From: Podospora anserina
Lineage: Eukaryota
Direction of reading: 5' to 3'
DNA length: 64,000 nucleotides
NCBI GenBank assembly: GCA_017654855.1
Contig: CM030337.1
Location: 3,348,001-3,412,000, forward strand
The translations under genes were made by a program, and so were the position numbers. Shown one piece after another: positions 9,721-30,120 of this stretch (position 1 is its first letter; each line of letters opens with the position of its first letter). Below the pieces are notes generated by a model that worked only from the letters and a program-made list of their open reading frames with translations, had not been told where the DNA came from and searched no databases.

Positions 9721-11230
9721 TGTGACGAACCCCTATCCAGAACTTTTGAAAGAGATACTGGTTAAAGGTACTTCTAAATAATCCTAGTTCGGTGCAGCTA
9801 AACAGTGCACAATAAGATATCTTAATGTAAACACAAGATGCCGTGAATATAACTTAAATTGCATACTGCGGAACTATCTATCTATACTAGCTAGTTCCTC
9901 CGTATATATAGATTAGGGGACCGTGGACCGTTGACTTATAGGCGGTCCTCGGTCCTCTCTGGATTGGCCGATACTAGACCGTGGACCGTGAGACCTACTA
10001 CGGTCCCCGGTCCCCACCTTATTGGTCCGTTCCGTCCTACTAGACCGTGAGCCCCGCTTGATCGTTCGGTCTAGCCCTGATTGGTCCGGCGCGCCCCACT
10101 GTCTTCCAGAACTGTAATATGATGCTCCCCCTTCTAGGCCGAAGCCCCTGCGGCCTAGTCTTCTTCCACTGCTAACGATACCGTAAATCTTTTCCTCCTT
10201 ACCTCTCCTTTATTTTTACTATATTTAACCGCATACAAAAACATTATTATAAAACTAATTAGTTTTCCGCCCTAGCCTTATAAATCCTCCGTTATAGTTT
10301 TACCGTAATACTGTATTTTACTTACTTCGCCTCCGAAAACCTATATATTATAGCCCCTAGATCCTTACGATGCGCCGAGTACGTACGCCGTAAGATTCTA
10401 TACAACGGGTTTAACGTAAGCTCCGCTCGTAAGTATATCTTCCTTTTCTTTTGGTACTATGTCTGACCGTTCGTAGTGACCCGAGCGATAGAAGAGTAAG
10501 ATAGACTTAAGCGTAAGGAGTAAGAGCTTAAAGAATAATTCTCGTAATTAACTGCTAAGCTTATCCGGGTAAAATAAATACGTCGCTTTTTCCGTAATCG
10601 CGAGGGGCGTCTTTTCGCGCGGGGTATTTAGAAGGAGGATACCCTAGTGTTACGGTCCGTCGTACCGCCCTCTAGTTCTTCGGGTGCTTCTGCGTAGCCT
10701 ACCGCCGCGTAGGATGCCGCCCTATAGACTCCTTAAGCCCTGGATCCCTCCGTAGGTCTTAACTGGCCTTTTAATTTTTCTTTCGACCCTAGTGCGGCTA
10801 GTCCTTTTTTTTTAACCGCCTAAAATACTGCCGCTAGCGCGCCTTCCCTTTCCTAAGGTGGTTAAAGCGCGTAGTAGTCTTTATATTTAGGTCCCTTTAT
10901 ACCTTCCAATTTCGTAATATAGTATATAGTACGTCAATTACTTTGTCGAAGGCGTAGGTTCGATTCCTGCTAAGGTTCTTTTAGCTTTATATTATAGTTA
11001 TTTAGCTATAACCTAAGGCCTAGTCTTTTTACTTACTTAAGTTTTGGCCGGTCCGGGTATCGCTAGTAGAATTTCTTTTATTTATTTAGGTAGTTAAAGT
11101 ATGCCTATAGTTCTTACGAGTTATCTATAGCTAAATATTTTAACTAATTAACTAAATACTTTAATTTACTTCTATTGAACCGTAAATCTAGTATCTCTTT
11201 TACATCGTACTCTTTTTCTTCGTCCTCCGC
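9721..11230 (-). mobile_element. 3' part of a RIPed Ty3/Gypsy element (crapaud-like): 3' LTR 9721-~10119, PPT ~10125-10133, 3' internal region
   Basis: Conserved LTR half TGTGACGAACCCC...TATATATAG shared with three other LTRs in the window. Purine tract AAGGGGGAG on the minus strand next to the LTR. Confidence 0.75.
10280..10860 (+). pseudogene. RIPed antisense accessory ORF of the gypsy element, Zn2Cys6-like
   Basis: Reverting RIP changes in 'cgatgcgccgagtacgtacgccgtaagattctatacaacggg' gives RCAECVRRKxPCDG, preceded by further Cys positions and followed by a charged coiled-coil-like stretch. Confidence 0.5.
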
Positions 11231-11560
11231 TGTGACGAACCCCTGTACAGAACCTCTGAAAGGGATACGGGTTAAAGGTAACTTCTGACAATTAGTTCGG
11301 TGTAGCTAAACAGTGCACAATAAAATGTCTCGATGTAAACACAAGATGCCGTGAATACAAACTTAAATTGCATACTGCGGAACTGTCTATCTACACCGGC
11401 CAGTTCCTCCGTATATATAGACCTCAATCCTCTAGGTACCTCCGTACCTAGATCACGTCGATCACCAAGCGCTCCTGGTGATCCATCCTGGCTCACCTCG
11501 CTCACCCAGCGCTCCTGGCGAGCCGGCTCACCTCTGCCAAGAGGTGAGCGCCCCACTGTC
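11231..11560 (-). mobile_element. Crapaud-like LTR (different U3 type), interrupted near its 5' end by the LTR at 11561
   Basis: Same conserved half as the 9721 LTR. Ends in GCGCCCCACTGTC like that LTR but lacks the last ~18 nt. Confidence 0.8.
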
Positions 11561-11647: not shown

Positions 11648-11822
11648 AGGCAGAGTGATCAGTGTGATCAGGGCACTGAGCAGACTGAGCAGAGTGATCA
11701 GTGTGATCAAGGCACTGAGCAGACTGAGCAGAGGTGATCAGTGTGATCAGGGCACTGAGCAGACTGAGCAGAGGTGATCAGTGTGATCAGGGCACTGAGC
11801 AGACTGAGCCGAGGTGATCAGT
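11648..11822 (+). repeat. Tandem array of ~39-40 bp (4+ units, GAGCAGAG(G)TGATCAGTGTGATCAGGGCACTGAGCAGACT) in the LTR U3
   Basis: Directly visible near-perfect tandem units. Confidence 0.9.
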
Positions 11823-13020
11823 GGCCTTAGGAGACTGATCACGGCTTAGCATAAGGACTATATATACGGAGGAACTGGCTGGTGTAGATAGACAGTTCCG
11901 CAGTATGCAATTCAAGCTTATATTCACGGCATCTTGTATTTACATCGAGACATCTTATTATACACTGTTTAGTTACACCGAACCAAAATTATTCTGAAGT
12001 TACCTTCAACCAGTATCCCTTTTAAAGGTTCTGGATAGGGGTTCGTCACACGTTATATACTTACTTTAACTCTATTATGGATAAGTTAAAGGTATTAAAA
12101 TAACGTTATAGCCGGAAACGTTAGTACTTAGGGGGGCTCGACCTAACCCACTATTAACTAGCTTTTTACTCGTATTTAAAAGCTTAAAGATAAGTTACGC
12201 CTTTCCTACAATACCCTTACGTAAGAGAACGCTATACTTTACTAGAAAATTAGTATCTTACGTAAGGAGGAAAAGCGTATTAAACTCGAGGTACTAGACC
12301 GGTACGGAAGTATAAAAGGAAAGTTAGGGGGATTTTTAATTTAATTTAAAGTTTACTTTCGGTATTACCCTTCTTATTTTCCGGATAAGGAATCTAAAGT
12401 TATATACGCTACGTTTAGGCTTAAAAATATAATACTTATATAGTTCGAACCGATTTTAGGAAATTATTTCGATAATATATATAATTAAAGGGAGGATATT
12501 ATTAAAGTATATTTTAAGTTATATAAAGGTTTTAAAAAAAGATTAAAGAGGTATTTAAAGAGTATAACGAAAGTAAGTATATTTAAAAGCGATTAACTAA
12601 CTTTAAATAAACTCGATTTACTACCGATTACATTATAGTATTTAGGACGGATACGCTCCGTAATACGATTAATAATAAAGGATTAATATAAGTATTTTAT
12701 AATAGGCTTAAAAAAAAATTAAAAATAAACTATATCGGATAAAACGATCGGAGACTATCGACGAATATATCGTAATAATAGTTTATATTAATAATTAATA
12801 ATATTAATATTATAAAAAGCGTAAAGGTATATATATATAAAAACCTTATTACTTTAACGATAAAAGGAAGAAATAACCGTACGGGACTTACGTTTTGGGG
12901 ATTATATATATAAAGCTTATAGAAATTAATATTATTTAATAATAAAAATTATAAAATTAAAATAAAAATAATTTTAAATATTTTAATTATAATAAAATAA
13001 AATATTTTAAAAGGGACTAT

Positions 13021-13382
13021 TGAAATGGTGAGAAAACACACAAAACAACCACAACACCACAAATATACCCTCAACAGGTCTCAGAATGAACACACCTGCG
13101 TGACAGTGACTCGCTCGCAGGCCGCACTTCACGTAGGACAAAGAAAAGACACTATGGGCTCGCAGGCCACATAATAAGCACCGGATTGGCCTGATCAGAG
13201 GGCCAGAATTGCCTGCACGCGTGCAAGGCACAAAATACGAAGCAAAGAATAAAAGTCGATGTCCTGTCTAAAATAGAATGTCCGAAGCAGACCGCTTATA
13301 TACATGACCCTGAACCCCTGAGTCCTCTGAGAGCCCCGCTTCCTTACTCATACTCTCAGGCCTGTGGCCGCACCCCAAACCA
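13021..13382 (-). repeat. 3' LTR (362 bp)
   Basis: Direct repeat of 24522-24884, 32348-32710 and 43855-44217. Confidence 0.97.
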
Positions 13383-13559
13383 AACCTCCCTTCGCATTTG
13401 ACCACTACAAACCAGTGGGCAAATGCGTACACAAGAAAAAAATCCCTTACAAACCAAAAAAAAAAAAAAAAGAAAATATCGTTCAGCAGAAAGAAGGGAA
13501 AACGATGTAATCCTGCTATCCCTTTATCCATTCTCCCTTGATCAGAGAGAAGAGCACCC

Positions 13560-15083
13560 TCACTTCTCGGATCTCAGAGCATACCTCCGTCCCTGTCGAG
13601 CCATCACAACTGGTGACCTAACGACCTCCTCCCTTCGTCTCTGAGGAACTCCAGGAGCCCACTCCCATCCCATGAAACCAGGTGTGTGATCAGGCGAAAG
13701 GTGTGTTGTTGGCGATCCTGAGTGGTCATAAGTAGGGGGACGGGCAATTACAGGCCCAGAGAGGAGCGGCGAGTCCATTGTCACAGGAGTGCGGAACCCA
13801 AAGGGGGTTGCTACCCTGCTTGGTCGTTGAGAGTTGCTCGACACGCTACTTGGTCCAAACCCTTCATGATCAGAGGGAAGACCCACGACGCACTCATCTC
13901 CCTCAACAGTAGTAACCAAAGCTAACGGAGAACCAGGGAGGGAAGCAAACCGGGGAATTGGTGGAGACTTGAAAGGAGACGAGAGGGTGCTTGGCAGGTT
14001 GAATCCTTCCGCGTCCATCAAGTCCTCCAGGCCCCTCCTCCTCCATTTCTTATCACGCACCCTCTGATCAGGCTCACAACCCAAAGACCTTTTCACATAA
14101 GCCATCCACAACCTCATCATCTTCTTCCCCGCAACGCCCACGGTCTTGCAGTCTCTGTAGCAACGATCTCCTCTCCAAGCCTTTACTACCGTTAAATCCT
14201 CCTCTTCACCGTACGAAACACCTCCCTGAAAGTAGGTACGGCAGTGCTCCAAGACCCAAAGACCACATTCCCACGCCCCGCCCTGTTCACCGCAAGCTGG
14301 CCTCCTCACTTTCACGTCAAGGCTGCAGTGGAAAGCGTGACGGATGTAAGATACCAGGCAAGAAATAGCATTAGCTTGATACCCCTTCCAATCCTTCGAC
14401 GAGTCCATATAAACCAAAATGCCAGTAGCAACGTCGTAGATGCCCACTGCCCAGTGGCTTCCGTTGTTGACATGAATGGGGAGGACCCAGTATCGTCGGT
14501 CAAAGGCGTTGTGGTTGTCGTTAGGCAGGAAAAAGCGCATCGACGACTTCATCATAACAGGGTTCAGAGGCTCTCCAGGGATCCATATACAACGCTCGAG
14601 GATTCCCTGAAGAGAGTACCGAAGAGCGCAGGTAAGGACCGAGCTAGTGAGCCACTGCTTGGCCTCTAGTTGACCTTGAAGGTCATACATAGCGCAAGTG
14701 AGGGAAGCTACATGGATACCGTAGATGTGAGTCCGATCAGGGGGGGTCGTTATTCTCAAGCCAGGAAAAAGATATTTGATAGTGTCAATCGAAAACTGCT
14801 CCACGAAAGTGGTGTTGATCCAGTCGGGCCGCCTTCCCACAACATGATCTCCTGGGTCGGCAACCAGGTTAAGGCCAAAACGAACAGGCCAGAGAGTGTC
14901 ATCGCCTTGGGGAAGGAAGATGCCGCGCGGGGGACCAGAGCCATAGACCCTGTCGATACCTTGAAGGCGCGCTTTCCGAATAATCTCTTTAACGAGATCA
15001 TTGGGAGGGCCGAATTTCTTGGTGGCGGTGAATTCTTCCCATGACATGTCGTGAATGGACTTTGTAAAAAGCGTTGATGACAT
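13560..15083 (-). CDS. Retrotransposon cargo: Ulp1/SENP-like (peptidase C48) cysteine protease with a Ser/Pro-rich tail
   Basis: WLTSSVL, YWVLPIHVNNGSHWAVGIYD (catalytic His), VYMDS (Asp), QGGAWECGLWVL (oxyanion Gln and catalytic Cys). Likely start MSSTLF at 15083, though the frame is open to 15248. Confidence 0.85.
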   Translation of the reverse strand: MSSTLFTKSIHDMSWEEFTATKKFGPPNDLVKEIIRKARLQGIDRVYGSGPPRGIFLPQGDDTLWPVRFGLNLVADPGDHVVGRRPDWINTTFVEQFSIDTIKYLFPGLRITTPPDRTHIYGIHVASLTCAMYDLQGQLEAKQWLTSSVLTCALRYSLQGILERCIWIPGEPLNPVMMKSSMRFFLPNDNHNAFDRRYWVLPIHVNNGSHWAVGIYDVATGILVYMDSSKDWKGYQANAISCLVSYIRHAFHCSLDVKVRRPACGEQGGAWECGLWVLEHCRTYFQGGVSYGEEEDLTVVKAWRGDRCYRDCKTVGVAGKKMMRLWMAYVKRSLGCEPDQRVRDKKWRRRGLEDLMDAEGFNLPSTLSSPFKSPPIPRFASLPGSPLALVTTVEGDECVVGLPSDHEGFGPSSVSSNSQRPSRVATPFGFRTPVTMDSPLLSGPVIARPPTYDHSGSPTTHLSPDHTPGFMGWEWAPGVPQRRREEVVRSPVVMARQGRRYALRSEK

Positions 15084-15423
15084 CGTTCTGTGAGAATTGA
15101 GAGGGAGTAGTGTGTGGTGTGATCTGTGATCAGAGGGTTGTCGAGAGGGAAGTGAGGAATTTTTTTGGAATGGAGAGTTAAAGAGGGAAGAAGGTCTTCG
15201 GTGAGTCTTTGTTCTCTGTTGTCTGCCTGGCTTGTAAGGCAAGATCATCAGATAGTTGCGTAAGCCGTTTGAGGAGGAAAGAGCGCTCTGATGAGTCTCC
15301 CTCCTGTAGAGGTCTGTAGGACCAGTCGCACCGTCCTATCCTCTGGTTATAAATACCCATGCCAGTTCTCCTCATTCCCGCTCACTCCTCATCTTTTCAG
15401 TACTTATTAACCGCTTCCTCCCA
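15084..15423. promoter_or_regulatory. Putative bidirectional promoter between the two cargo genes
   Basis: 340-bp gap between divergent ATGs. TTATAAATA at ~15347 followed by a pyrimidine-rich leader before ATG 15424. Confidence 0.45.
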
Positions 15424-16493
15424 ATGGCCTCTTCTTTGAGGAAACCTGCTGCTTCGTCCGATCAGGCGGTCGACGACCTTACTACCCAGGTATCCACGAC
15501 CTCTTTCGCCAAAAACTTCCCAGTCAGGTCGAGGGAGTCCTTGACCTTGCTGCGTACGACTGGTCCGAGGTCGCCATAGACCCTACTCAAGAGCCTTTGC
15601 TTGCTACCCTCACTCATCGTCCCACCGACCTCACCCGTGCTCCCAACAATCAAGGCGTTGCTTACAAGAGGCACGTCTGGGTTCGGCGTCCTACTTGCGT
15701 TCACGACTCCACCATGCCCAAAGGTGCTAATGCTTATCACGACATTTCTCTCCCCCATCAGGCTGCTCTTTGGTACCTCAAGATTTCCCCTCTAGATCCC
15801 AAACACGTGGCTGCTCCCCTCTACCTTGAGTGGTTCCTCCCTGATCCGACGAAGAAGGGGGGTAAGAAAGAGTGGCAGCTACTTTTCAAGGACATTGGTG
15901 CGGACAAGACTGTCACTGATTACATCTCCAAGGCGTTGTCGACCGGTTCCGTTAGGCGGATTTTCGTCGAACGGTCCAATGGGTGGTTCTTCGGGCGCTG
16001 GCTCTTCGAAATCGTCAAGCGGGCTCATCGCTCTAAAGGCTTATTTGTCCAGGCCACCGGGTTACTGTAAGTGCCGCCCCCCTGATCAGACTTAGCCTGA
16101 CACTAACATGTTGGATTCAGTCATGCCAATCCATGTGATGAGTGCGATCAGAGCTATCGCCGGTCTTTCGTGACGTTCCCCGATGGGACCAAAACTAAGG
16201 TGATGTGGCCATACTTCGGTTGTGTGGGAAGAGAGGACCTCGATTGGAAATGCGGGAACTGCTGGCATAAGGGTATCCATTGCTCATGGTCCAGTGTTGA
16301 TGAGGACAGCCCTTACTTCAAGGATCTTGGTAGTGGTGGGTTATCGAAGTTGGATCGTGGTGCCGTGAGCTTGATTCCTGGTGGTGAGGAAGTCGATTGG
16401 GACCAGGAGTGGGAAGAACAGCGGGCTGAGTACAAAGAGCTTAGGAAACAGCAGATGGATAAGAAGAAGGAGAAGAAGAAAGAAAAAGAATAG
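15424..16493 (+). CDS. Retrotransposon cargo (antisense): ~338-aa DUF3716-like Cys6 zinc-binding protein, exons 15424-16066 and 16121-16493
   Basis: Intron GTAAGT...CTAAC...CAG (54 nt) gives VQATGLLHANPCDEC...WPYFGCV...KCGNCWHKGIHCSW and a Lys-rich tail. One apparent frameshift (A5 at ~15511) reads A6 in the sister copy. Confidence 0.75.
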
Positions 16494-16729
16494 TCTTCCA
16501 CTTCCTCAGATCAGAGGAAGGGGCATAAAGAGAGGAGTGAATCGGAAAAAGAAATGACAGGAAAAGAAAAAGAAAAAATTAAAAATTCAATGCGATGATC
16601 TTCACCCCAATCAATCACCTCCCTTAGTGTCTTTCCTCCCTTTGAGAACAGACAGCTCCCACAGCTCTGTTCTCACAACACAAGCTTCAGTACCCTCTTA
16701 AAGAAAAAAAAACAACTACAACGCCTTCG

Positions 16730-19700
16730 TCATCGTCTCCCCTGATCACCCAAGAAGTCCTCTGGTCTACCCTTCTTCAGGACCACCTCTATACTTTTGC
16801 CCTTCTCAAATCTCTTCTGCACCTCAGCATTCTTCCGTTCCATCCAAGTCTTCCCCCTGGTCATCATTCTCCCTGGTGTTTCTTCCACTATCTCTTCTTC
16901 TTCATCCTCATCTTCCACCATATCCACGCCTTCCTTCACTCCATTCCCAGGCACCTGCTCAACTCTCCCTAGTCCTGGCTGCATGTCCGTATCCTCTTCA
17001 TCTACATACACGTCTTCCAACCTAAAAAACTTCTTTACCCTGTTTGGCGTGTAAGAAGCTCGCAATGGCACCCCATCCAGTGTCTCCAGGAAGTAGCAAG
17101 TGTTGCCTGGTTCGACCTTCCTCACTCTGAAAGGGCCGTCCCAGCGGTACTGTAGCTTCCTTACCACACTCATATCCAACTTTCTATCCATTTTATACAC
17201 CAACACCAAGTCCCCCCTTCTGATCATGCTATTCTCAGGCCTAATGCTGCGAATCCCTTTTCTGTTCTTTTCTTGCCGCGGCTTTCTGTCTTGCCATGCC
17301 AACCCTCTCAGCCACCAGAGTCAGATTCATCTCCTGGGATTTCAATAGTCTCGCCCTTGCCTCTATTAAATCCATAGTCGCTCTCTCCTTCCAGTGTCTC
17401 CCTGATCTGTCGAAGCCAATCTTTTCCCACTGGACGACTCTCCATGACGGTACGTCCTTTTCGATCGGCGTAATGGGGTTAAACCCATGTGCCAGATAGA
17501 AAGCACTGTACCCATGAATACCTCGTGTCGTGGTCCTATCAGCAAACAACACATAAGGGAGCCACTGCTTCCACTTCTTCCCCGTCCCATCCGTCATTTT
17601 TGCCAGCATCGATGCAATTGGGATGTGACCAGACTCCGTCACTCCATTTGCTCTTGCGTTGTAAGGTGAGACCACCACCCGAAGAACTCCTAGCCTCTCT
17701 AAAATCTCAGCAGCTTCCTTCCTAAATTCTGATCCGCCGTCCACCACCACGATCAGAGGGTGACCCCATCTGAGGATGATATCGTGCAGGATAAAGTTCT
17801 CAACCCCAGAAGCCTTGCCTGAGCTCAAGACCTTCGCTTCTGGATACCCAGTCAAGTCATCCCTCGCTTCCAGAAGGTAGGCTTTTTCTCCCGAAGCCGT
17901 TGGTAAGAACTGAACGTCTAAATGCCACTTCGCAAATGGGGTAGCTAAAGGCTCAGTATATAAGTGCCAGTCCTCCCAACGCTTCGGGCTCCATTGTTGA
18001 CATTGCCTACATGTCTTGATCCAAGCCTCGACGTCAGCGTACATACCCTTCCAGTAGTAGTTTTCTACTACTCGGGCATAGGTAGCTTCCGTCCTTTGTG
18101 GCCCATCTCGTTGTGACACGCATTGAAGACTCTTTCCCGCTCGATCAGAGGGTCAACAATTCTCCTGGGGGGAAAGCCTCCTTTGTTTGGCTTAAGAAAC
18201 AAAACTCCGTCTTCGAGAATCATTTTCAGGGCGTCATTCTTGATGGTCTGAACGTCAAACCTCGTCTTAGCCCTTGGCTCCGCACCAGTCGCGAGGAACT
18301 CGGCGATAGCATGGGAGTGAGGAGACCACAGTCCATTCAAGTAGGGGCCTTGCCCAATAACTTCCTTTTTCTTCTTCCTGATATTCACCCGCCAGACACT
18401 TACTTCCTGGATATCGTTCTTCCAGATCCTTGCGTCAACCTCATCATCAATGTCTGGCTCTAACTCCTTCTCCCTCAGATCAGAGGGGCCAGGTGGCTTT
18501 CTCGATAGTGCGTCTGCCACAAGGTTCTTACTCCCAGGGATGTGAACAATTGTGAAGTCGAAAAGTCTAATCCATCCCAGCCATCTCATCATCAAGGCGC
18601 CGGGAACGTCACTAGCCGCCCCCTGGACTTGGTGGACTACCACTTGAGCGTCCGTTTCCACCGTAAAGTGTACCCCGAAAAGATACCTTCTAAATCTCCT
18701 CAAAGTATACAACAGTCCTCTCAACTCCCTCTTGGTGGCATCATACCTCTGTTCAGCCGGGCTCCAAATACCACTCTCAAACCGACAAGGGTGCCGTTTT
18801 CCATCAGGTCCTACTTGTTCAATCACCGCTCCCCACCCCGTCAAGCTTGCATCAAAAATAACAAAGATTCTACCGAAACGGTCGTCATCAAACGTCAGAG
18901 AAGCCAGACACGGTGCCTCTGTGATCAGAAAGGCAAGCCACTCCATCGCACCCTGTTGAGCTTCCGTCCATTCCCATCTCGTGTCCTTCCTCATCAAGAA
19001 ATACAGCGGAACTGCGATCAGATTGAAGAGAGGTACCCATAGCCGATAGTAGCCGGTGATCCCCAGGAAGGCGCGAACATCCTTAAGACTGTGGCAAGTT
19101 CGCCATTCCCTTATCTTCACTATCTTTGTCTGATCAGGGAGGCGCCCGTCCGGTGTACAGGAATAGCCAAGGATAACAGCTTCCCGTCTGCACCAAAGGG
19201 ATTTCACGGCTGCAATTGTGGCTCCTGCAAGCTCACAGTTGAGCAAGACTGCGTCGATATTCTTCAAGTGCTCCAGGACCCACTTCCTAACTCCTGGCCT
19301 TTCTTCTTCACCATTGTAGTCCCACCTTGGCCCTTTCACTGCGATATCGTCCAGGTATGGCCGACACACCTGTGGGATGAGATCTTGAAAGACTCTGGTC
19401 ACGGCTCTTTGGAACTGGGCCACTGAGTTGGTAGCTCCTTGAGGTAGGGTACACATCCTGAATAGGCCGATAGGTGTCGCGAAGGTAGTGAGGTCTCGGC
19501 TCGTCAGGGCTAATTTGACTTGGTCGTATCCGGAGAAGAAGTCAAGCAAGGAGGTAATAAGGCACCCTGCAAAGTCCTCGCTGAACTCCTCAGTGCTTGG
19601 TGGGATAAAGGCATCTCGTTGCGTAACCTTATTGTATCTCTGGGCATCGTTGATCAGACGGAGGCCACCATCCTTTTTCTTTACTAGGAACCAGTTGTTG

Positions 19701-20668
19701 CGGTAGGGACCATGCGCTTCCTCAATAATATTTCTCTTGATTCGTTCCCTAAGGAGATCGATGACTTTCCCCACGAGTGGCTTCGGGATCGGAATAGACT
19801 TGCTTTGCCACGCTTTGTGAGGGATAGTCCTGATGTGTTGAGCAGGGAAGACTTCTTCAAGGATCTGTCCACACTCGGTGAAGTCCCATGCCAGTGCAGC
19901 CTCCCTTGCGAATAAGATTGCCGTAAACACTTTAACCTCCTGATCTGTCAAAATGTCGGTGGTTTGTCTGATCAGATCGGCTAAGCGTTCTGGAGTGAGG
20001 CGTGACCCTCTGATCATTTCAGAAAACTTAGGGACCACAATATCGTCGAATTCTGAGCCGTATTGTAGGGATTCCTTGACTGCCGCCCATCTCCTTACTT
20101 TCCAGTTCGGATCTCCTTCAGGAGTGCTACCATCTGACCCAGCATTATCAACCGGCTTCACCTTCTTATCTACCCTCTTGTACATCGTAGCAGTAGTAAC
20201 AATATCCGCAGGCGTTGGCCAGGCCTGTTCAAAAGTGGTGATCAGGCTGGTCTTCATGTTGTTTTTCTTCTCAGAAGGGGGCGGAGGTGGATGACGTCTA
20301 TGTGGTTGTGTAGTGAAGAGGCTGCGCTGACCTGGTTGAGTGAGGGACCAGTTAAATATCCCCAAGCATAAGGATGCCATATCGGGCTTAAATGGGGTTA
20401 TCCTGCTAGTCCTCTGATCAGACGGCGGCGATGTCTTTGGCAGTGGTGGCGACGGTACTAAATGCAGACCTGTTATGAAGGTCGGTGGTGGCGGTCGTTC
20501 TTTCCCTGAGATTTCGTCCGAAGTTAGAGTTCTTGTCGTAATTTCCACTCTTCCAGGCTGAAACAAAGACTTCTCTTTCTGGCAGTCCCTTATACCTCCC
20601 TTCTTTCCTTCCCTCTGATCACTAATATTCTTTCCTCCCTTGCTCCTAACATCCCCCTTTTCTTTGTT
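16730..20668 (-). CDS. pol: pol: reverse transcriptase, RNase H, integrase (two 1-bp frame breaks at ~18090 and ~17270)
   Basis: LDFFSGYDQ, LPQGATNS, YLDD; FDASLTGWGAV, ETDAQ, VADALSR; HHCC (CHNEMGH..CRQCQ), DDE (HLDVQ, VDGGSEF, TESGH), GPF motif. No chromodomain. True start unknown. Confidence 0.93.
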
Positions 20669-20863
20669 TTATAAGAAATAATATCAGACGCCAGGCAATA
20701 ATTTAATAACGGCAAACTTGACTCCCCAAAATAAAATTAAGCAAAGAACGCCCAGCTCCTTCATTCAGTCCCCAATCACTTCATCCCCTTCCTCCAGCTC
20801 CTCCGTTACCCACTCAGGGACAGGTACTCCTTCATTAACCAATCCCTTAAACACCTGTAAGGG

Positions 20864-23800
20864 TCAGCTGGCAGGAGAGGCATTACCTCGATCCCTGCCG
20901 TTATATTCCGCCTTCATCTTATCAATCACCTCCTTTTTTACCACGTGGGCCTTAATCAGCTTTCCCCCATACAACATATTCGCGCTAATCATACAGCCCT
21001 TCATAAAATCAAGGGTGAGGCTCGTATCCGTGAAGAACGGGATGCCCAATAGCAGGTCATGGAAACCCAGAGCCTCAGTGTTATCAATAACGAAGAAATG
21101 ACACAAAATTGGAACCCCAGCCAGCACTACTGGAGCCTGAGTCTCACCTATAAACGCAACCGGATCTCCATGAAGGCCTTTAGACTGTAGGTTCGTCGAC
21201 ACCATCGGTAGACAGAACCTCTCAGCTACAGCCCTACTGATCAGGTTGCACTCCGAGCCTGTGTCCAACATTGCCAGCACCTTCTCTGAAGTTGGTGAGA
21301 CGAAGTTACAATATAGCGATGGGACGTTGTGGGTTCGAGTGACGGCTCCCAGGAGAGTTCGCTCACTACCGGAAAGCCGGCCAATGGGCGTAGACAGCAG
21401 AGTCCGCAATCGCTCTTCTGGGCTGTCACCCGGTTGGACCTTGCCTTCGATGATCTTCTCCCAGATGCCTCCCTCGACCACACCATACTCACCATCCGCC
21501 GTGATCCCGTACAAAGCAGGGACAGTCTTCCTCTGATCAGACGGAGGAGTCTTGCTGTGTCCAGCCGTCTGAAAATTCGTCCGAACCGTTGACGGCAAGG
21601 CCTCCCCCTTCTGTGGGACTTCTCTCTTTCCATCCGGGGTACTCTTGGAAGATCCACGCCACTCGATCACCTCAGCATCCTCGGCCACACTCTTCACGTA
21701 ATCCATCAACCGGTAAGCAAATGTGGGTGAAACCCTACAATGCTCTTCCAGTGTGAACTTAGTCTGACCACAGGCGTACTTTTTGGCTTTCTCGGCAATG
21801 TAATCCCCAGAGTCCTCTGCCTCACCATCAGGCAACCTTGAGCCACTCCGACTCCATCCCCTGATCGGACGAGACTCCTCCTCAACTACCTTTGGCTTCT
21901 CTTGCGCGGGGGTGAGTACCACTTTCGGATTTTCGGCTGAGGCTGGGTCATCCATATCCTCTTTCGGCAGATCCTCGATCCTTACTCTCTTCGCTCCTTG
22001 CGCGCCTACCCCCACTTCCACCTCTTGGTTGCAGACGACCACTGGGGCATCATCAGAGCGCTTCAGAATGCTCCTAGGCGACCACTTCTCTGCTGAGCAG
22101 CGTTGCAAGGCATTCCTAGTAATGTAGTCACTGGCTGAGTTCTCGTTAAACGGTACGTAGGGTTTGGAGTACCCATGAAGCCTGTTTAACCTGACATCCA
22201 TAGCCCTGGCCATCTGAGTAGCTGTCTGCTCCCTCCCTCTGATCAGAGAGACCTCGGGCCTGTATCCCTTGCCCTCACGAGCTTCCCAGTGCTCAGCCCA
22301 TTTCGTGTAAGCTTCATAGGCCCTATTCAGTTCTGGTTTCAACGAAATTGCAGCACGAACCAGGTCGCCAACCTTCCCTTCACGCTGCGCCTTCCTCACA
22401 TCCTCTTGATCAAGCCACGCTTTTTCACTCTCCGGCCACTCCTTCTTACCGATACACACTCTGCCTCCTTCAGTATGGCACAGTCCCCACGCCTCATCAT
22501 ACTCCTTCTTCGGACACTCCGTCGACTTAGCGTAATGGCCAGTCTTGCCGCACCAGAAGCACCTTCTTGGTGGGGGAGGGCTATCGCGGTACTGCCCCCC
22601 TGATCTTCCGAACTGGGTTTTAGTATCAACAATGGGGAAGGTATTGAAAGACGAATCCATTTCCCCATTAGGGCCAATGCCAAAATCCAGGAGTAAGGTG
22701 CCTGGTCTTCTAGGTGTTGAACGCGGGTCCTCATTATCCCAGATTTGCCGTTTCCCGGTGCAGAGAAACCACCGTAGATATTCGCCCTCAAATGCTGCAG
22801 TGCCATCTCTCTGTCTACCATAGCGTTAACCGCCATGTACTGGTCGAGCACCTCGGCCGCCTGATCAGAGGCAGCAGGGGAGGGTGCAATGGTTGATTTG
22901 TCCTCCTTGTAGATTCTTCCTCCCACGTCATACCCATCTTCGATCACATCATTAATCCAATCGCTCCAGGTAATAAAATTCATGGATCTTAAACGACGTT
23001 CGGATCCTCCTCGGTTGATAAGGGTCATCCTCATTGACTCGGAGAATTTCATCCAAAAGCGGCTGGCAACCCTGGCTCTTACTGCCTCTTTCTCCCCGGT
23101 CGGCACTCGAGAGAGCAGTTTGGAGTGGTCAAAACAACCTTCCTTAACTCGCCCACACCTTCAGGGATAACCTTGGCGTAGAAGTCATCCAACTCCCTGT
23201 GGATATCTTCGTCTTGTCGGGGGTCATAGATCTTAAAGAGGCGTTTAAGGCGGACAACCAGGACAGGCCAAGTATCGGTGGGTGTAGGTAGGTCTACACA
23301 TTCGTCAATCTGTTTTCCCACATCGAAGTCACACCAGGATTTGAACTTGCGAACGCGAGAGGTAAATTCCACGACATGGTACTCTTCACAGGCATTCTCG
23401 AAACGCTCCAGATATTCCGTAAAGTGCTTCCCTTTGAAGTTGCTCTTAAAACCGACTTTCTTCGGATCAGGGAATTCACGCTGAGGAAAATACATAGGCA
23501 CCATGGGATAGGGGGTTGGATGATCAGACGTAGGGGACCCCTGGAAGTGGCGATAGTCGGGGTAAGCTCCTATGGGATATGGGTATCCGGGTTGCTGGAA
23601 TTGATGCGCGAACCCAGGAAGAGGAGCGGGATATCCGGCATGCCGAGTGGGAGGCGCAGTATGATTCCAAGCAGCAGGATTTGGGTGGGTACGAGGTCCA
23701 CCTGGCACGTCAGGAGCGTTGGGCCTTGCAGTCGGGCCACCTTGATCAGAAAGGGGCGAGGGGTCTCAGCATCTTCAGGGTGAGCGCGGTTCGCAGCCGG

Positions 23801-23941
23801 GGAGAGGACGAATGGTGATGATTCCGGGGACCTGGCCGCCGGAATGGCCACTTCTACCACGGAACGAGCCGTAGGAGCTTGATACCCCTGGTTGTCGCCG
23901 GGAAGGCTAGCCGAAGCGATGGGTGGGACATTGTCGGACAT
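20864..23941 (-). CDS. gag: gag-protease polyprotein, ~1026 aa after correcting three 1-bp deletions (~23755, ~23132, ~22691)
   Basis: Four overlapping ORFs joined by +1 corrections that the sister copy supports. FKGKHFTEYLERFE capsid-like start, zinc knuckle CFWCGKTGHYAKSTEC, aspartic protease LDTGSECNLIS. Confidence 0.88.
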
Positions 23942-24502
23942 GTCGATACTCGATGATTGCTGTTGCGTTTGCGTTGGTGGTATGGCTTTTTCCTTGTGTA
24001 TGTTGTTGGAAATATGAAGACGGTTGTCCCTTGCAACTCCAGTATGTGGGCATGAGTTACATCTACCCAGATCAGAGGGAAAGTGTCCTCGTCTCCTTGC
24101 TTTTGGGTTCCCGATGTCCTGAGTCAAACTGACCCGGAAATCCCCACGATTGTCCACCATCGCTAAACAACACACCAGGAGGATTCCTCCTAACCAAAGA
24201 TAGGAGAGGACTTTGATAGTTGACGCGGAGATAAGGTCCACTAACGAGCTAGTCTCAACCAATGCTCTTAGTTCACTTCCCGGTCCCATCCGGACCACAC
24301 ACTTGACTCTCCACTCGCGGGCAGAAAGTTTAGAGTTTGGTCGATGATGAAAGAGCTTTATCCGATCAGACGGAGAAGAATCGTTTCCGTTGAACCTCGC
24401 GGGGTTCAGTGAAGTTGTCGGTGCTTGTTGTCGTTCGTGGCTTCGCACTTCCTCCAGTACCCAGGGCTTGTGAGTCCAGTTTGGACCCTGAGCTTTGCTC
24501 AA

Positions 24503-24519
24503 CCCGGGCACGACCTCCA
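24503..24519 (-). promoter_or_regulatory. Primer-binding site TGGAGGTCGTGCCCGGG, probably tRNA-Gln
   Basis: Starts with TGG 2 nt inside the 5' LTR boundary. The complement ...CCCGGGCACGACCT-CCA resembles fungal tRNA-Gln 3' ends (from recall, not searched). Conserved in the sister copy. Confidence 0.7.
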
Positions 24520-24521
24520 TT

Positions 24522-24884
24522 TGAAATGGTGAGAAAACACACAAAACAACCACAACACCACAAATATACCCTCAACAGGTCTCAGAATGAACACACCTGC
24601 GTGACAGTGACTCGCTCGCAGGCCGCACTTCACGTAGGACAAAGAAAAGACACTATGGGCTCGCAGGCCACATAATAAGCACCGGATTGGCCTGATCAGA
24701 GGGCCAGAATTGCCTGCACGCGTGCAAGGCACAAAATACGAAGCAAAGAATAAAAGTCGATGTCCTGTCTAAAATAGAATGTCCGAAGCAGACCGCTTAT
24801 ATACATGACCCCTGAACCCCTGAGTCCTCTGAGAGCCCCGCTTCCTTACTCATACTCTCAGGCCTGTGGCCGCACCCCAAACCA
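24522..24884 (-). repeat. 5' LTR (363 bp) with TATATAAG box at ~24797-24804 (minus)
   Basis: Direct repeat of 13021-13382, adjacent to the PBS. Confidence 0.97.
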
Positions 24885-27800
24885 CTATAAAGTATTTAAA
24901 TAACTCGAATAAAAAAAGGAAATTATAATAATTATTATATTAAAAGAATTAAAAGTTATAAAGGTTATAATTATTAAATATTAATAAAGTAAAGTAAAAA
25001 ATTATTATTAAATATATATATAAAAAAATATTAAGTATATAAAAGACGGAAAATAAGAGGAAGTTAAACGAATATAATTAAAAAATTTTATATTATTAGA
25101 TAATCCGGAGTAGGAGGATATTTTTAAACGATATAATTATTTAAAAAACGATTTACGGCTTTTCGCGGGAATTAATAACCTTTAATAAATTATAAATAGT
25201 ATTATTAAAAATATTAATATAAAACGAAGGTATAGAATAATAACCCGGTATTTATTAATAAAGTTATTATTATATAGGGAGGAAATAAGAGAGATAAATA
25301 TTTTTAAATTATAGTATATTAAAAAAATATTTAAGTAGTAATATTAATAAATAAAGGTATAAAAACGAATTTAATTTCGTTATAATTTATATATTAAGTT
25401 AGGATATTATAGAAAAAAAAAAGAATAGATCGTTATATAAAGATTATTTCCGATATAAAAAACTTATAAAAAAATATTATTTTTAAATATTATAATCGAA
25501 AGAAAAATAATTTTAATTATATTTAATATTATAAATATAGGACCTTTAAAAAATATAATCCTAAAATAATTATAATATAAAGATTATAATTTAAATATTA
25601 ATTAAAAAGATAGTAATTATTTACGATTAAAAGAATTTTAAAAGTATTTAATTAACGATAGGAGATTAGACGTACGTATAAAGTAAGGTATAGGATAAGT
25701 ACCCTCTACGGTATTACCGTAAGGAACTTAAAAAGTAATAATATACTTTATTAATATAAATAGTAAAATCGAAAAAGTAGGGTTAATAACATTAATAAAA
25801 ATATCGAAGGTTAATAAATATATTTATTATAATAACGTAAAGAAGAGCGAGAAAAAAGTAATATTAATAAAAGATCGAAAATATTTAACTTTTACGGTTA
25901 AATATTTAAAAGGATTTTTAAAGCGAGGACCGTACGATTATAAAATTAAATTAAAAAAAAATTAAATTACGGTTATTTAAGGTTTATTATATTAATAATA
26001 AGTAAAGTAAAGAATTACGGAAATATTTAAATAAAAATTTAAAAAAAAAATATATTAAGGAGTTTATATTATTAATAAAATATCCTATATTTTTTATATT
26101 AAAAAAGGATAGTAATTTACGATTATATATAAATTATTATTAATTAAATAACGAAATGGTAAAAAATAATTATTTATTATTATTAATATTTAAATTATAA
26201 AGTTAATTAGTAGAGGCGCGATACTTTATATATTTAAATATATTTATCGGGTATATTTATATACGGATTAAGGAAAAAAATAAATAAAAAATAATATTTT
26301 ATATATTTTATAATTATTTCGAATATTTTATAATACTATTCGGATTAATTAATACGCCCGTAATATTTTAATTTTTTATTAATTATATAATCCGGAAATA
26401 CTTTAATAAAATAATAATATATTATTTTAATAATATTTTTATTTATTTATATACGTTAGAGAAATATAAATAATACGTACGAAAGATATTTAACGTATTA
26501 TATAGAGCCGGATTTTTAATTAATAAAAAAAAATAAGTTTTATATATAAAAAATAATATATTTAAAATATTTAATATCGTTAAGTAAGGTTTATATAGAA
26601 TTTAAGAAAATTATAATAATTAAGGACTAGCCTATACTATAATTATAAATATATATTAAAGAATTTTTAAAATTTATAAATTTCTATCGGATATTTATTT
26701 AAAGGTATATAAGTATTACGCGGTTATTTAATTATTTAATTAAGAAAGATATAGAGTTCCGGTGGGGGTAGAAAAAAAAATAAGTTTTTTAGAAGTTAAA
26801 AAAGGTTATTTTAAAGGATTTAATATTTAAATTATTAAATTTTAATTAATTATTTAAAATCGAAATAAATATATTAAACTATATAATCGGTAAATAATTA
26901 AAGTAACGAAACGACGACGGTAAGCTATACCCGGTAACCTTTTTTTAAAGAAACTCGAAAGGGTATATTAAAATTATTTAATTTATAATAAAAAATTATT
27001 CGTTATTATCGAAGCGTTCGAGGAATAAAAATTATATTTTAATAATATTAAATATAAAGTATAGGTTTATATAGATTATAAAAGTTTACGGTACTTTATT
27101 ATTACAAAAGTCTTTAACGTATAATAAATATAATAATTAAAATTTCTTTCGGAATTTAATTTTTAAATTAATTATAAAAAAAGTTCGGAAAATACTAGAG
27201 TAAACGTATTTAGCCGGTAAACCGATTACTATAAAGATATATTTAGGGAATTACTATTATTATTTAAAGAGGCGTTAAATAGTATTTTTAAATATTTATT
27301 ATAGCCGTAAATAAAGTATTATATAATATATTATAAAAAAGTTATTTTTAATAAATATTAAAGGAAGTTAAATAATAATATTATAGAATAATATTAATAG
27401 GAAAAACTAAAGTTATAAGGTATTTAAAAAGATAATTAGGGAAGATTATAGTATAGGAATTAAATATATATAATACTAAATAATAGGACGGTATTAATAA
27501 TAGAGATTTATAGATCGAAATTCGGAGGATATATAAATATTGTAAAGATTATAAAAGAAATTAAATAATACTTTAATTAATTAAGGATTAAAAACGATAT
27601 TAAGGAAGTTATTTAATTATACTATACGTACGAGAAAATAAAGGTTATAAAATATAAATTTTATAGATTTTTAAAGTTATTATTAATAATAAAATAATTA
27701 TAAAGTTTAATTATAATAAACTTTATTATTAAATGATTAAAGTTTAAAAATATAATAACCGGCGTTAAATATAATAGTATATTAATAGTAATCGATAAAT

Positions 27801-28002
27801 TTATTAAATAAATATATTTTTTATTTTATAAAAAAATTTAAGTAGTAAAGTAATTAATAAATATAATATTATAATATATTGAATTAATATATATATAATT
27901 AAAAAAGTTTATTACGGACCGTAATACTAAATTCGTATCAAAGTTTAAAGAGTATTAATAACGAGGCTAAAAGTAGTAAGTAAAATATTTTCGGTTTATT
28001 AC

Positions 28003-28635
28003 TGTTAATGTGTGGGTACTACTAAGTGCCCTACTTACTGCCCTACAGATTGATATTACAGTGGGCAGTACTGCTATAAGCAGTAATGGAATTTCCCGGC
28101 TTGGATCCCTTTAGAATGTTCTTTACAAGGGACCCTTGAAGGCTTACAGGGCTACTGTGGCCTAAGGCTTAGTCAACAGGATACTGGAACCTTCTAAAGT
28201 GGCTACAGGCTTACGTAGTAAGTCGCCGCAATAGCATGATTTACAGGGCACCTCTGCTGCCGAAGGTTCTATGGATTTCCGTGAGTCTACACTAGACCCA
28301 CCTAAGCCCACCAAATACCCTAAAGTGGTATAGGGGCTTCCAGGGCCTACAGGACCCACAGTAGGCTTACGAAGGCCTATATATAGACCTCTCCTCTCTC
28401 CTGTAAAATAGTTTTCTTTCTTTCCTTAAGGGCAAAAGCTTAAGGCTAAGGCCAAAGGCCAAGGCCAAAGGTAATAAAGGCAATTCTTATTCTTTATACC
28501 TCACTGTATTACAGTGCTTTACTTTCCTTCGGCACTGCCGTCGTATCCTCCCGCTTCCGCTTGCGCACTGCTGTATTTTACAGCAACCCTGTATAGGTTC
28601 TATATTATAAGCCTATCAGGGCTTACCAGCTAACA
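28003..28635 (+). mobile_element. Solo LTR of a Ty1/Copia family inserted in the gypsy integrase relic
   Basis: TGTT...AACA ends, 5-bp TSD ATTAC, homologous to the Copia LTR at 47710-48323. Confidence 0.92.
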
Positions 28636-29579
28636 ATTACTTTTAAATAAACGGTTAAACGGAACGGTTTAATTAAATTATAAAATAATATTTACGGAAT
28701 TATATTAATTTCGAGTAGGACGATTAAGTTAAATTATTATTTATAATATAATTAATATATAATATATTATTAATTAAAACGATTAAAGTTATAATATTTT
28801 TTATAAACTTTAAATATAAAATAAATCTATAGTAAGAATTTATAATTAAAGTATTTAAAGTTAAAGTTAAAGTAAATAAAATATATATATTTTATAATAA
28901 ACTTAAGTAAAAACTAAAGTTTATAAAGGAAAGGATACGGAAATATTATAATATTAAAGGCTCGAGGGACTTCGCTTTAAGGGAGGAGATATACTATTCT
29001 TTTCTATACGTAATTTATATATTAAAAAACCTAATAAGAAGCTAAACTATAGGAGAGTAGGCCCCTTTAAAGTTAAAAGGAAGATATTAGAAACGATATT
29101 CGAACTAAAGTTACCTAATATAAGATATTTATAATTATATACCTTTTATATTTTACTTTTAAAATCCGTATTACTAGTAAATAAAATTAATATATAAGTA
29201 ATAACGGAAAACGAAAAAGAAAAGTATATTATAAAAAAGATATTAGATTTATAGTTTAATAAAGGTTAATTAAAATATTTAATTAATTAATTAAGATATT
29301 TAATTATAAATAATTTATAGGAATTAAAAATATATTTTAATTATTTAAATAAATAAAAAGTATTTTACTAATAATACCTAGACCGATTAAAATTTAAATA
29401 ATAAAAAGATTTATACTTGAATTATAGAAAAATATTTATAAATTTAAATATAAAAGAATTTTAATAAAAATTAAATTTACGTTTTTAATATAATAATTAA
29501 TGTATTATATATTATACTATAAAATTAAAAAGTATAAAAGAGTTTAAATATAAATAATATTACGTATTTTAATTACCTT

Positions 29580-30120
29580 AGGAAGTAGAAAGTATACTTT
29601 CGGCGGTACTTTGCGGGGTTAGGAAGGAAAGACCGGCTATACCCGGGTCTAGAGAAAGGTTAGGCGGCTAATCGAAGCCTAAGGAAGGATCTAAAAAGAA
29701 AAGATCGGAAGGAATAGCGGAAGCGTCCGCCGCCGGCGGACTATATAGGGTACTAGGCTATACGGAAGACTCTCTTTCTTCTTCCTTAAAGAGCTGAGAT
29801 TTACGACGAAAAATAGTAAGGGCTCGAGCCTTAAAAGTACGTAATTACGCTTCGAAACGAAAAAATTTATTTAAAGTAATTTACTTTTCGGTATTTAAAC
29901 GTTTTTTTTTTTTAATTAAAAAACGGATTATAGGGATAATTAAAAAAAGGAAGGGAAAGTTAAAAAAAGAATTTACGATTTACGTTATAAACGTTATAAT
30001 AAGAACGACTCGAATTAATATATAGAAAGTACCGGTCGTATTAAAGGGAAATTATATTTTAAAGGTTATTTTCTTTATAATAAATATATTTAAATATAAT
30101 AAAATTAAACTTCTTAAGAA
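29580..30120 (-). pseudogene. RIPed antisense accessory ORF relic in the 3' region of the gypsy element (possibly Cys-cluster)
   Basis: Same position and orientation relative to its element as 10280-10860. Residual CG-rich codon structure, but very degraded. Confidence 0.3.

Follow-up and report, generated by a model that had tools for sequence, protein, structure and literature searches.

Genes carried on the strand opposite gag-pol have been described in long terminal repeat (LTR) retrotransposons for decades, and the sections of two reviews that treat them call their origin and function unknown (PMC7264820, PMC11963269). In fungi, Boty-like Ty3/gypsy elements of Botrytis cinerea and Sclerotinia are described as bearing an antisense gene named brtn (Zhao et al. 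2011, Virology 417:248, as cited in PMC8365987, PMC7264820, and PMC4227169). Plant counterparts, as summarized in the relevant parts of the reviews, are antisense open reading frames (ORFs) lying between pol and the 3' LTR in maize Grande (gene23), rice RIRE2, Silene Retand (TRP28), and PvRetro13; they occur in most copies of their families, a dedicated promoter and a nuclear product are described for Grande, and DNA binding is suspected as a role (PMC7264820, PMC11963269). Here we analyze a predicted gene of this kind in Podospora anserina, at positions 15424-16493 of a 64,000-nucleotide (nt) stretch of contig CM030337.1 (assembly GCA_017654855.1, positions 3,348,001 to 3,412,000, forward strand; this whole stretch is hereafter the window). 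It lies on the plus strand within an 11.9-kb Ty3/gypsy-type LTR retrotransposon encoded on the minus strand. We think it probable that positions 15424-16493 hold a genuine accessory gene, in two exons, that belongs to an active element, and homology places its product in the DUF3716 family as a divergent member.

The antisense gene and its intron

The gene is located past the end of pol and before the 3' LTR, opposite gag-pol. A first-pass annotation, made from the sequence alone, had proposed that an antisense gene here is split by ORF listing and can be restored with one homopolymer correction and a canonical 54-nt intron. Two plus-strand pieces are indeed found, both in frame 0 (15411-16070, 219 amino acids [aa]; 16107-16493, 128 aa), and the reconstruction was reproduced: the spliced, A-corrected coding sequence of 1017 nt encodes 338 aa and ends at a TAG stop (16491-16493). 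The ATG at 15424 belongs to frame 1 and reaches frame 0 only when a run of five A's (A5) is read as six. Use of this start is backed by alike N-termini in the homologous gene of metagenome locus L006 and in database protein P0017 (below, P and L numbers denote database proteins and metagenome loci). The upstream piece closes at the TAA inside the GTAAGT donor (16067), and the putative intron contains in-frame stops and a CTAAC at 16103-16107, 17 nt ahead of the acceptor. Exon 1 ends in LFVQATG, the start of the DUF3716 profile, while exon 2 carries the motifs NPCDEC, WPYFGCV, KCGNC, and HCSW; its layout is one of six conserved cysteines with WP and CGNC, then a variable stretch, and last a lysine-rich tail. 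All of the motifs and the basic tail listed in the first-pass annotation are present. On the sense strand of the element, the longest ORF over the same stretch is at most 109 aa. A side observation concerns window position 16122, one base past the acceptor-side codon split, where three of four short-read runs have T for C; this changes the first full codon of exon 2 from His to Tyr and leaves the splice signals unaltered.

Exon 2 (123 aa) was used as query in an exhaustive HMMER search of 1.84 billion representative proteins, which gave 13 matches at E up to 0.001. P0003 and P0007 were set aside from these as low-complexity repeat proteins, and P0002, at 84% identity, was treated as a mutated version of the gene itself. 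The most informative match is P0004 (341 aa), to which exon 2 aligns at residues 221-331 (E 1.5e-9) and exon 1 at residues 31-217 (BLASTP, E 3e-12), so that the two exons are collinear with a single protein and only three residues separate the two matches. A word-indexed search with exon 1 found the gene's own cluster (P0001) only, and rerunning the alignment search at E up to 10 yielded no further homologues.

A scan of metagenome contigs provided seven loci (L001-L007), among which L003 and L004 are one locus (99.7% identity) and the L001 and L002 genes are nearly alike. Every locus that has both halves of the gene shows a homology gap of 41-57 nt at the place of the intron. Intron candidates were taken from a script listing of frame-keeping GT/GC...AG pairs. 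The same intron site, in phase 2 and with a branch-like CTRAY that precedes the acceptor by 13-19 nt, is shared by the window (54 nt, donor GTAAGT), L006 (57 nt, GTAAGT), L001/L002 (50 nt, GTAAGG), and L005 (53 nt, GTAATG); the best candidate in L003/L004 is 41 nt long, in phase 1, with donor GTGACC, a few codons off the shared site. This comparison supports an intron that is real and old and common to four independent lineages, and from the sequences we infer that the antisense gene is transcribed from the plus strand and spliced in vivo. With its exons collinear to P0004 and its phase-2 site found again in four lineages, the hidden intron-bearing antisense gene proposed in the first-pass annotation is borne out.

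The cysteine-rich domain was compared with Pfam family PF12511 (DUF3716; curated cutoff, 22 bits). PF12511 is the top Pfam family in 14 of the 14 real database homologues (P0004-06, P0008-18), scoring above the cutoff in seven (P0009, P0010, P0014-18) and below it in the other seven, and a precomputed PF12511 assignment exists for five of seven alignment-search matches. We built a local profile from the seven cutoff-passing proteins and ran it against 316 targets, which included 312 window ORFs of at least 60 aa. The spliced window protein scored 112 bits in a single stretch (E 4.8e-34), compared with 68 bits for exon 2 alone and 31 bits for exon 1 alone; among the 312 window ORFs only the gene's own two matched, the other 310 having E above 0.8. 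In an alignment of 11 rows (A2), the invariant positions are W29, P30, C34, C44, G45, and N46, conservation at C5, C8, C47, and C54 is 90% or more, and an alignment of 19 rows (A5) is similar; L003:7329-7730 was left out of the alignments as out-of-frame noise. The conserved pattern of the family, a cysteine pair, WPF(F/Y)xC, G-x-CGNC, and a final cysteine, is borne out by these alignments, and a basic tail stands at the C-terminus in most family members. In Protein Atlas, exon 2 gave weak leads, with a DUF3716 cluster at rank 4 (score 0.80), and P0004 had DUF3716 clusters on top (0.88-0.89), which we take as a lead only. On its homology to cutoff-passing proteins, the assignment of the predicted antisense protein to DUF3716 as a divergent member holds.

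Retention, origin, and alternative explanations

The window holds a second full-length copy of the element, degraded by repeat-induced point mutation (RIP), with the same gene order as the intact copy, including both antisense exons and a Ulp1-like ORF. Across 11.9 kb the two copies share 69.4% nucleotide identity; of 3604 substitutions, C>T or G>A changes, which are the RIP signature, make up 3587. A related element is present on the 12-kb metagenome contig L006, whose reverse transcriptase (RT) is 58% and integrase (INT) 46-47% identical to those of the window element, with long ORFs for gag and protease (gag-PR, 1261 aa) and for RT-RNase H-INT (1301 aa). Its antisense gene has the same position and orientation, with both exons open and an ATG at 2691, and a head-to-head Ulp1-like partner ORF is also present; the antisense proteins of L006 and the window are 28-36% identical. 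The gene is thus carried by both window copies and by L006, the sole related element found elsewhere. Intact gene frames at an RT identity of 58% argue for selection within the element lineage, and the earlier suggestion that the gene is kept by selection finds support in this intact, equally placed and equally oriented relative.

Relatives of the gene also occur in ordinary chromosomal surroundings. The L003/L004 homologue adjoins LysM and chitin-binding genes, L007 adjoins GH32 and TPMT-like genes, and no RT, integrase, or protease was found near the homologues of L001-L005 and L007. Since such chromosomal family members have the same intron, the most likely origin, judged from these sequences, is DNA-level capture of a cellular gene together with its intron. 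Once captured in antisense orientation, the intron would be represented in genomic RNA by its reverse complement only, so the spliceosome could not remove it and it would be copied at each round of retrotransposition. The sense-strand Ulp1-like gene is intronless and the antisense gene is intron-bearing, a strand-wise difference that is expected if the element is copied through minus-strand RNA. The first-pass argument that an intron can survive only when antisense is standard retroelement logic and agrees with this uninterrupted sense-strand ORF. Convergent to the cellular homologue of L003/L004 there is also a 1976-aa open frame (L004 967-6894, minus strand; also L003 8589-9533), which has no Pfam match at E up to 1.

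Several observations weigh against a true accessory gene of an active element. No RNA run was found among those listed, and the four short-read runs, with one to 43 contigs each and no joints, are unspliced over the whole element, as expected of DNA, and are silent on expression. The window as given bears the A5 frameshift, which if real would make this copy a pseudogene. Exon 2 alone has no PF12511 match at E up to 10 when the exons are searched singly against Pfam; the PF12511 profile begins in exon 1, about 12 positions ahead of the first cysteine pair, and spans the intron, so the exon 2 piece lacks part of the domain. The DUF3716-like domain of the first-pass annotation therefore stands through its homologues and the 112-bit profile match, and not through a direct match of either exon. 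Structure predictions are too poor to interpret, with a predicted local distance difference test (pLDDT) score of 46.7 for full-length P0004 (AlphaFold2, 22 rows) and 56.8 for the window exon-2 domain (19 rows); Foldseek searches of the PDB with these poor models gave no match at E up to 0.001 (best E, 2.6), and searching PDB sequences with the family profile returned only Diablo (E 0.95), taken as chance. These results lend support neither to a zinc fold nor to a fold of another kind. In a domain-only tree a 97/95 split separates the window protein from that of L006, and in a full-length tree the two lie on the same side as non-sisters. Holding the two together costs 5.2 log-likelihood units and is not rejected by the approximately unbiased (AU) test (p = 0.076), the tested group having been chosen after the first tree had been seen; given this non-sister placement, a single capture is not demonstrated. 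Sampling is thin, with one related element outside the window.

Transduced gene fragments are carried by other retroelements, and on their model the antisense gene would be a passenger, acquired at random from the cell and carried along with no service to the element. We regard this as improbable. It is in keeping with the relatives in ordinary gene neighborhoods and with the non-sister placement of the window and L006 proteins, which fits repeated pick-up, but it has to account for the same position, orientation, intron, and Ulp1 partner and for intact frames despite an RT identity of only 58%, a distance over which a useless gene would have decayed.

That the A5 frameshift is real and this copy dead, a pseudogene of a gene functional elsewhere, is likewise improbable. 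As given, the window frame has a stop 52 codons past the ATG at 15424. Comparison of window positions 13400-24500 with contigs of the four short-read runs, however, revealed at least 15 single-base indels (12 listed) that are the same in all four runs, which is the pattern of long-read homopolymer error; those at 17268, 18088, 20723/20769, 22689, 23130, and 23752 coincide with frame breaks of gag-pol, 17268 being the integrase frame break and 22689, 23130, and 23752 the gag ORF overlaps. Two indels per run fall in the range 13484-16450 (positions unlisted), and run X15 has zero substitutions and two indels in 14964-16450. In addition, P0001 (215 aa, 99% identical to exon 1), which derives from short-read assemblies and has the same ATG, reads the A run in frame, as if it had six A's. 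Because the same indels recur in all runs at frame breaks, homopolymer error is the simplest reading, and we conclude that the A5 slip is probably an error of the window assembly and that the real copy is probably intact throughout. Other genes of the window may seem frameshifted for the same cause.

The antisense RNA itself could matter instead, by being complementary to the genomic RNA and feeding double-stranded RNA silencing or tuning the element; antisense transcripts of LTR elements are discussed as possible regulators in plants in part of one review (PMC7264820). As an explanation in place of a protein this is quite unlikely, because it leaves unexplained the uninterrupted frames that diverged elements keep in both exons, the invariant Cys, WP, and CGNC columns, and the homology to cellular genes, and because the gene lies clear of the pol coding region (stops at 16493 and 16730, 236 nt apart). 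A role for the RNA is compatible with a protein-based explanation, and the two can coexist. Finally, the reading that no gene exists and that the frames in this retrotransposon spacer are open by chance, for which the missing Pfam matches of the single exons might speak, is refuted by homologues beyond the element's own copies among 1.84 billion proteins (E to 1.5e-9), collinearity across 300 residues, the conserved intron site, and a profile score unlike that of any other window ORF.

Carrier element, partner gene, and possible function

The carrier is a Ty3/gypsy-type LTR retrotransposon. A direct-repeat search identified two 363-nt copies 11.5 kb apart that form the LTR pair, in which a single 1-nt indel is the sole difference on alignment, and these near-identical LTRs together with their CTAT flanks set the limits of the element at 13021-24884 (Table 1). 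On the element strand, a purine tract (AAGGGAGG) precedes the 3' LTR, and a TGG-led stretch resembling a primer-binding site follows the 5' LTR. The pol order is PR-RT-RNase H-INT, and L006 has the same order in two long ORFs. The aspartic protease ORF has a weak CCHC knuckle near its start (zf-CCHC_6, E 0.005, below cutoff), and the L006 counterpart of this ORF scores above the Pfam cutoff; the gag region has no Pfam match. With its LTRs, target-site duplication, and minus-strand pol domains, the element confirms that the gene is antisense to gag-pol inside an LTR element, as the first-pass annotation had stated. This copy is free of RIP and its LTRs differ by one indel, in contrast to the 3587 RIP-type changes of its sister copy, and the carrier is apparently a young and active element.

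Table 1. Features of the intact element, its predicted antisense gene, and the degraded second copy (window coordinates)
Feature	Position	Strand	Basis
Target-site duplication CTAT	13017-13020 (left), 24885-24888 (right)	.	Read directly
3' LTR, TG...CA ends	13021-13382	-	Direct-repeat search and alignment
Ulp1-like cysteine protease ORF, 591 aa stop to stop	13560-15335	-	Peptidase_C48 E 0.0031; 1EUV alignment
TATAAATA box, candidate internal promoter	15348-15355	+	Read; 69-76 nt upstream of ATG
Predicted exon 1, N-terminal region, about 215 aa	15424-16066	+	ATG 15424; P0001 and P0004 matches
A5 run, one-base frame slip	15511-15515	+	P0001 in frame across run
Predicted spliceosomal intron, 54 nt, phase 2	16067-16120	+	GTAAGT...CTAAC...CAG; comparison of loci
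Predicted exon 2, cysteine-rich DUF3716-type domain and lysine-rich tail	16121-16493	+	Homology, alignments
Integrase region of pol, two ORF pieces	16730-18152	-	Integrase_H2C2, E 1.6e-11 (Pfam)
Reverse transcriptase and RNase H	18068-20668	-	RVT_1, RT_RNaseH, RT_RNaseH_2 (Pfam)
Aspartic protease ORF	20864-22825	-	Asp_protease_2 E 0.0018, below cutoff (Pfam)
gag region, three overlapping ORF pieces	22396-24521	-	Position; ORF overlaps
5' LTR	24522-24884	-	Direct-repeat search and alignment
Second full-length element copy, RIP-degraded	32347-44217	-	tblastn with element proteins
Ulp1-like ORF remnant in second copy	32885-34658	-	tblastn
Antisense exon remnants in second copy	34829-35389, 35486-35758	+	tblastn

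The window resembles ascomycete DNA. Its G+C content alternates between blocks of 16-36% (about 24.9-44 kb) and blocks near 50%, and the window ends carry ordinary fungal genes (PEX11, lipoxygenase, short-chain dehydrogenase, and GH18 with LysM). The intact copy has AT-rich DNA on both sides of the insertion, and an AT-rich block (24885-32346, 16-36% G+C) separates it from the degraded copy. The short LTRs of the latter (32347-32710 and 43854-44217) are 96% and 93% identical to the intact LTR, largely spared by RIP compared with the 69% identity of the whole copy. Abutting the degraded copy is an ORF (44166-44858, plus strand) with a Pol_BBD match (E 9.2e-07, above cutoff) that is probably a fragment of another retroelement. 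Two further repeats lie upstream of the intact element: direct repeats of about 190 nt at 9721-9912 and 11231-11421 (88-92% identical, 1.5 kb apart, TG start), which may be the LTR pair of a small nonautonomous element or a local duplication, and a tandem array at 11655-11841 built from roughly four repeats, each some 40 nt long (GTGATCAG..., with CTGAGCAG-type words).

The antisense gene has a head-to-head neighbor on the gag-pol strand, an ORF in a single uninterrupted frame that resembles Ulp1 proteases. Its Peptidase_C48 score (17.8 bits) is below the Pfam cutoff of 20.7, and the ORF aligns to yeast Ulp1 (1EUV) over a core of SHWA, DS, Q, and CG, in which the aligned core residues are histidine, aspartate, glutamine, and cysteine. 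The L006 counterpart scores 26.5 bits, above the cutoff, and is 27% identical to the window protein over the core. Between the protease ORF end (15335) and the ATG of the antisense gene (15424) is a spacer of about 90 nt that contains the TATAAATA box; the first methionine of the protease ORF lies further inside than its end.

This arrangement suggests a possible mode of action. Transcription would start from an internal promoter in the 90-nt spacer holding the TATA box, and the spliced transcript would give the 338-aa protein, whose six conserved cysteines would bind zinc and whose basic tail would direct it to the nucleus. There it would bind DNA or chromatin and act on expression, integration, or silencing of the element, perhaps jointly with the Ulp1-like protease. 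Zinc binding appears moderately likely, the support being that a short domain carries six conserved cysteines and that the protein has no secretion signal; zinc-type Pfam matches are weak (Zn_ribbon_recom, E 0.28, window protein; Zn_clus, E 0.31, P0010). Nuclear DNA binding is a tentative proposal to which we give somewhat less than even credence, and any specific role deserves less. In its broadest form the model would have an ascomycete Ty3/gypsy lineage depend on a divergent two-gene module, a zinc-dependent DNA-binding DUF3716 protein and a Ulp1-type SUMO protease, that steers integration or undoes chromatin silencing, with DUF3716 genes having moved repeatedly between host and element; we consider this rather unlikely as a whole and offer it as speculation.

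Comparison with described systems

Boty is an element of roughly 6 kb, and the window element, compared with it by description only, differs in its length of 11.9 kb and in bearing a second extra gene, the Ulp1-like ORF, in addition to its antisense gene. Plant antisense ORFs have the same position and orientation as the window gene, but their products (TRP28, SMC-like proteins) are unrelated to DUF3716. Another antisense coding gene, HBZ of human T-cell leukemia virus type 1 (HTLV-1), has a spliced form. It starts in the 3' LTR of an animal retrovirus and has no sequence relation to the window gene, whose promoter candidate is internal. Like other such genes it is encoded on the minus strand, and its nuclear product is described as regulating the element in the part of a review that deals with it (PMC11963269). 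A word search of that review and of PMC7264820 found the word "intron" in neither.

DUF3716 genes are known from a mobile element of another class. REP9-1 and REP9-2 are reported, in the relevant passages, as DUF3716 genes of the REP9 DNA transposon (IS3EU type) of Zymoseptoria tritici, where altered REP9-1 expression changed pycnidia formation (PMC8232023). REP9 is a class II cut-and-paste carrier, in which orientation and introns have no special meaning, and it is likened to the window element by domain name alone. Among host genes, one paper gives Neurospora NCU05718 as the ortholog of PSC58, a DUF3716 protein of Fusarium (PMC10776026); in the account consulted, NCU05718 binds double-stranded TTAGGG repeats directly without an annotated DNA-binding domain (PMC4650311). 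Both are single-copy host genes, PSC58 being linked to the window protein by the name of its Pfam domain and NCU05718 by its stated orthology to PSC58; by analogy, the binding by NCU05718 hints at a DNA-binding role for the DUF3716 family. Ulp1 (C48) domains are likewise said, in part of one study, to recur in Ginger1 and Mutator-like DNA transposons, where mobile elements have recruited a SUMO or ubiquitin-like protease (PMC2836005). DNA transposons carry it as a domain or as a gene, whereas in the window the Ulp1-like sequence is a separate sense-strand ORF of an LTR retrotransposon, paired with a DUF3716 gene.

Our literature search, which covered few subscription journals and no supplements, found no report of a DUF3716 gene in an LTR element, of a fungal LTR element that carries a Ulp1 gene, or of a conserved spliceosomal intron in an antisense gene of an LTR element. 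What is known, then, is that LTR elements carry antisense extra genes; what we have not seen reported is a DUF3716 gene among them, the conserved intron, and the pairing with Ulp1. Simple ORF calling missed the gene owing to a probable one-base assembly error and a short intron, and similar genes in fungal repeats are for that reason likely under-reported. DUF3716, an uncharacterized fungal domain, gains a testable setting as a putative accessory factor beside a SUMO-type protease. Compared with antisense genes whose origin the reviews leave without explanation, the origin of this one appears traceable, through cellular relatives with the same intron; the intron in turn marks the strand that the element copies through RNA and suggests how a cellular gene taken up by a mobile element can persist there together with its intron.

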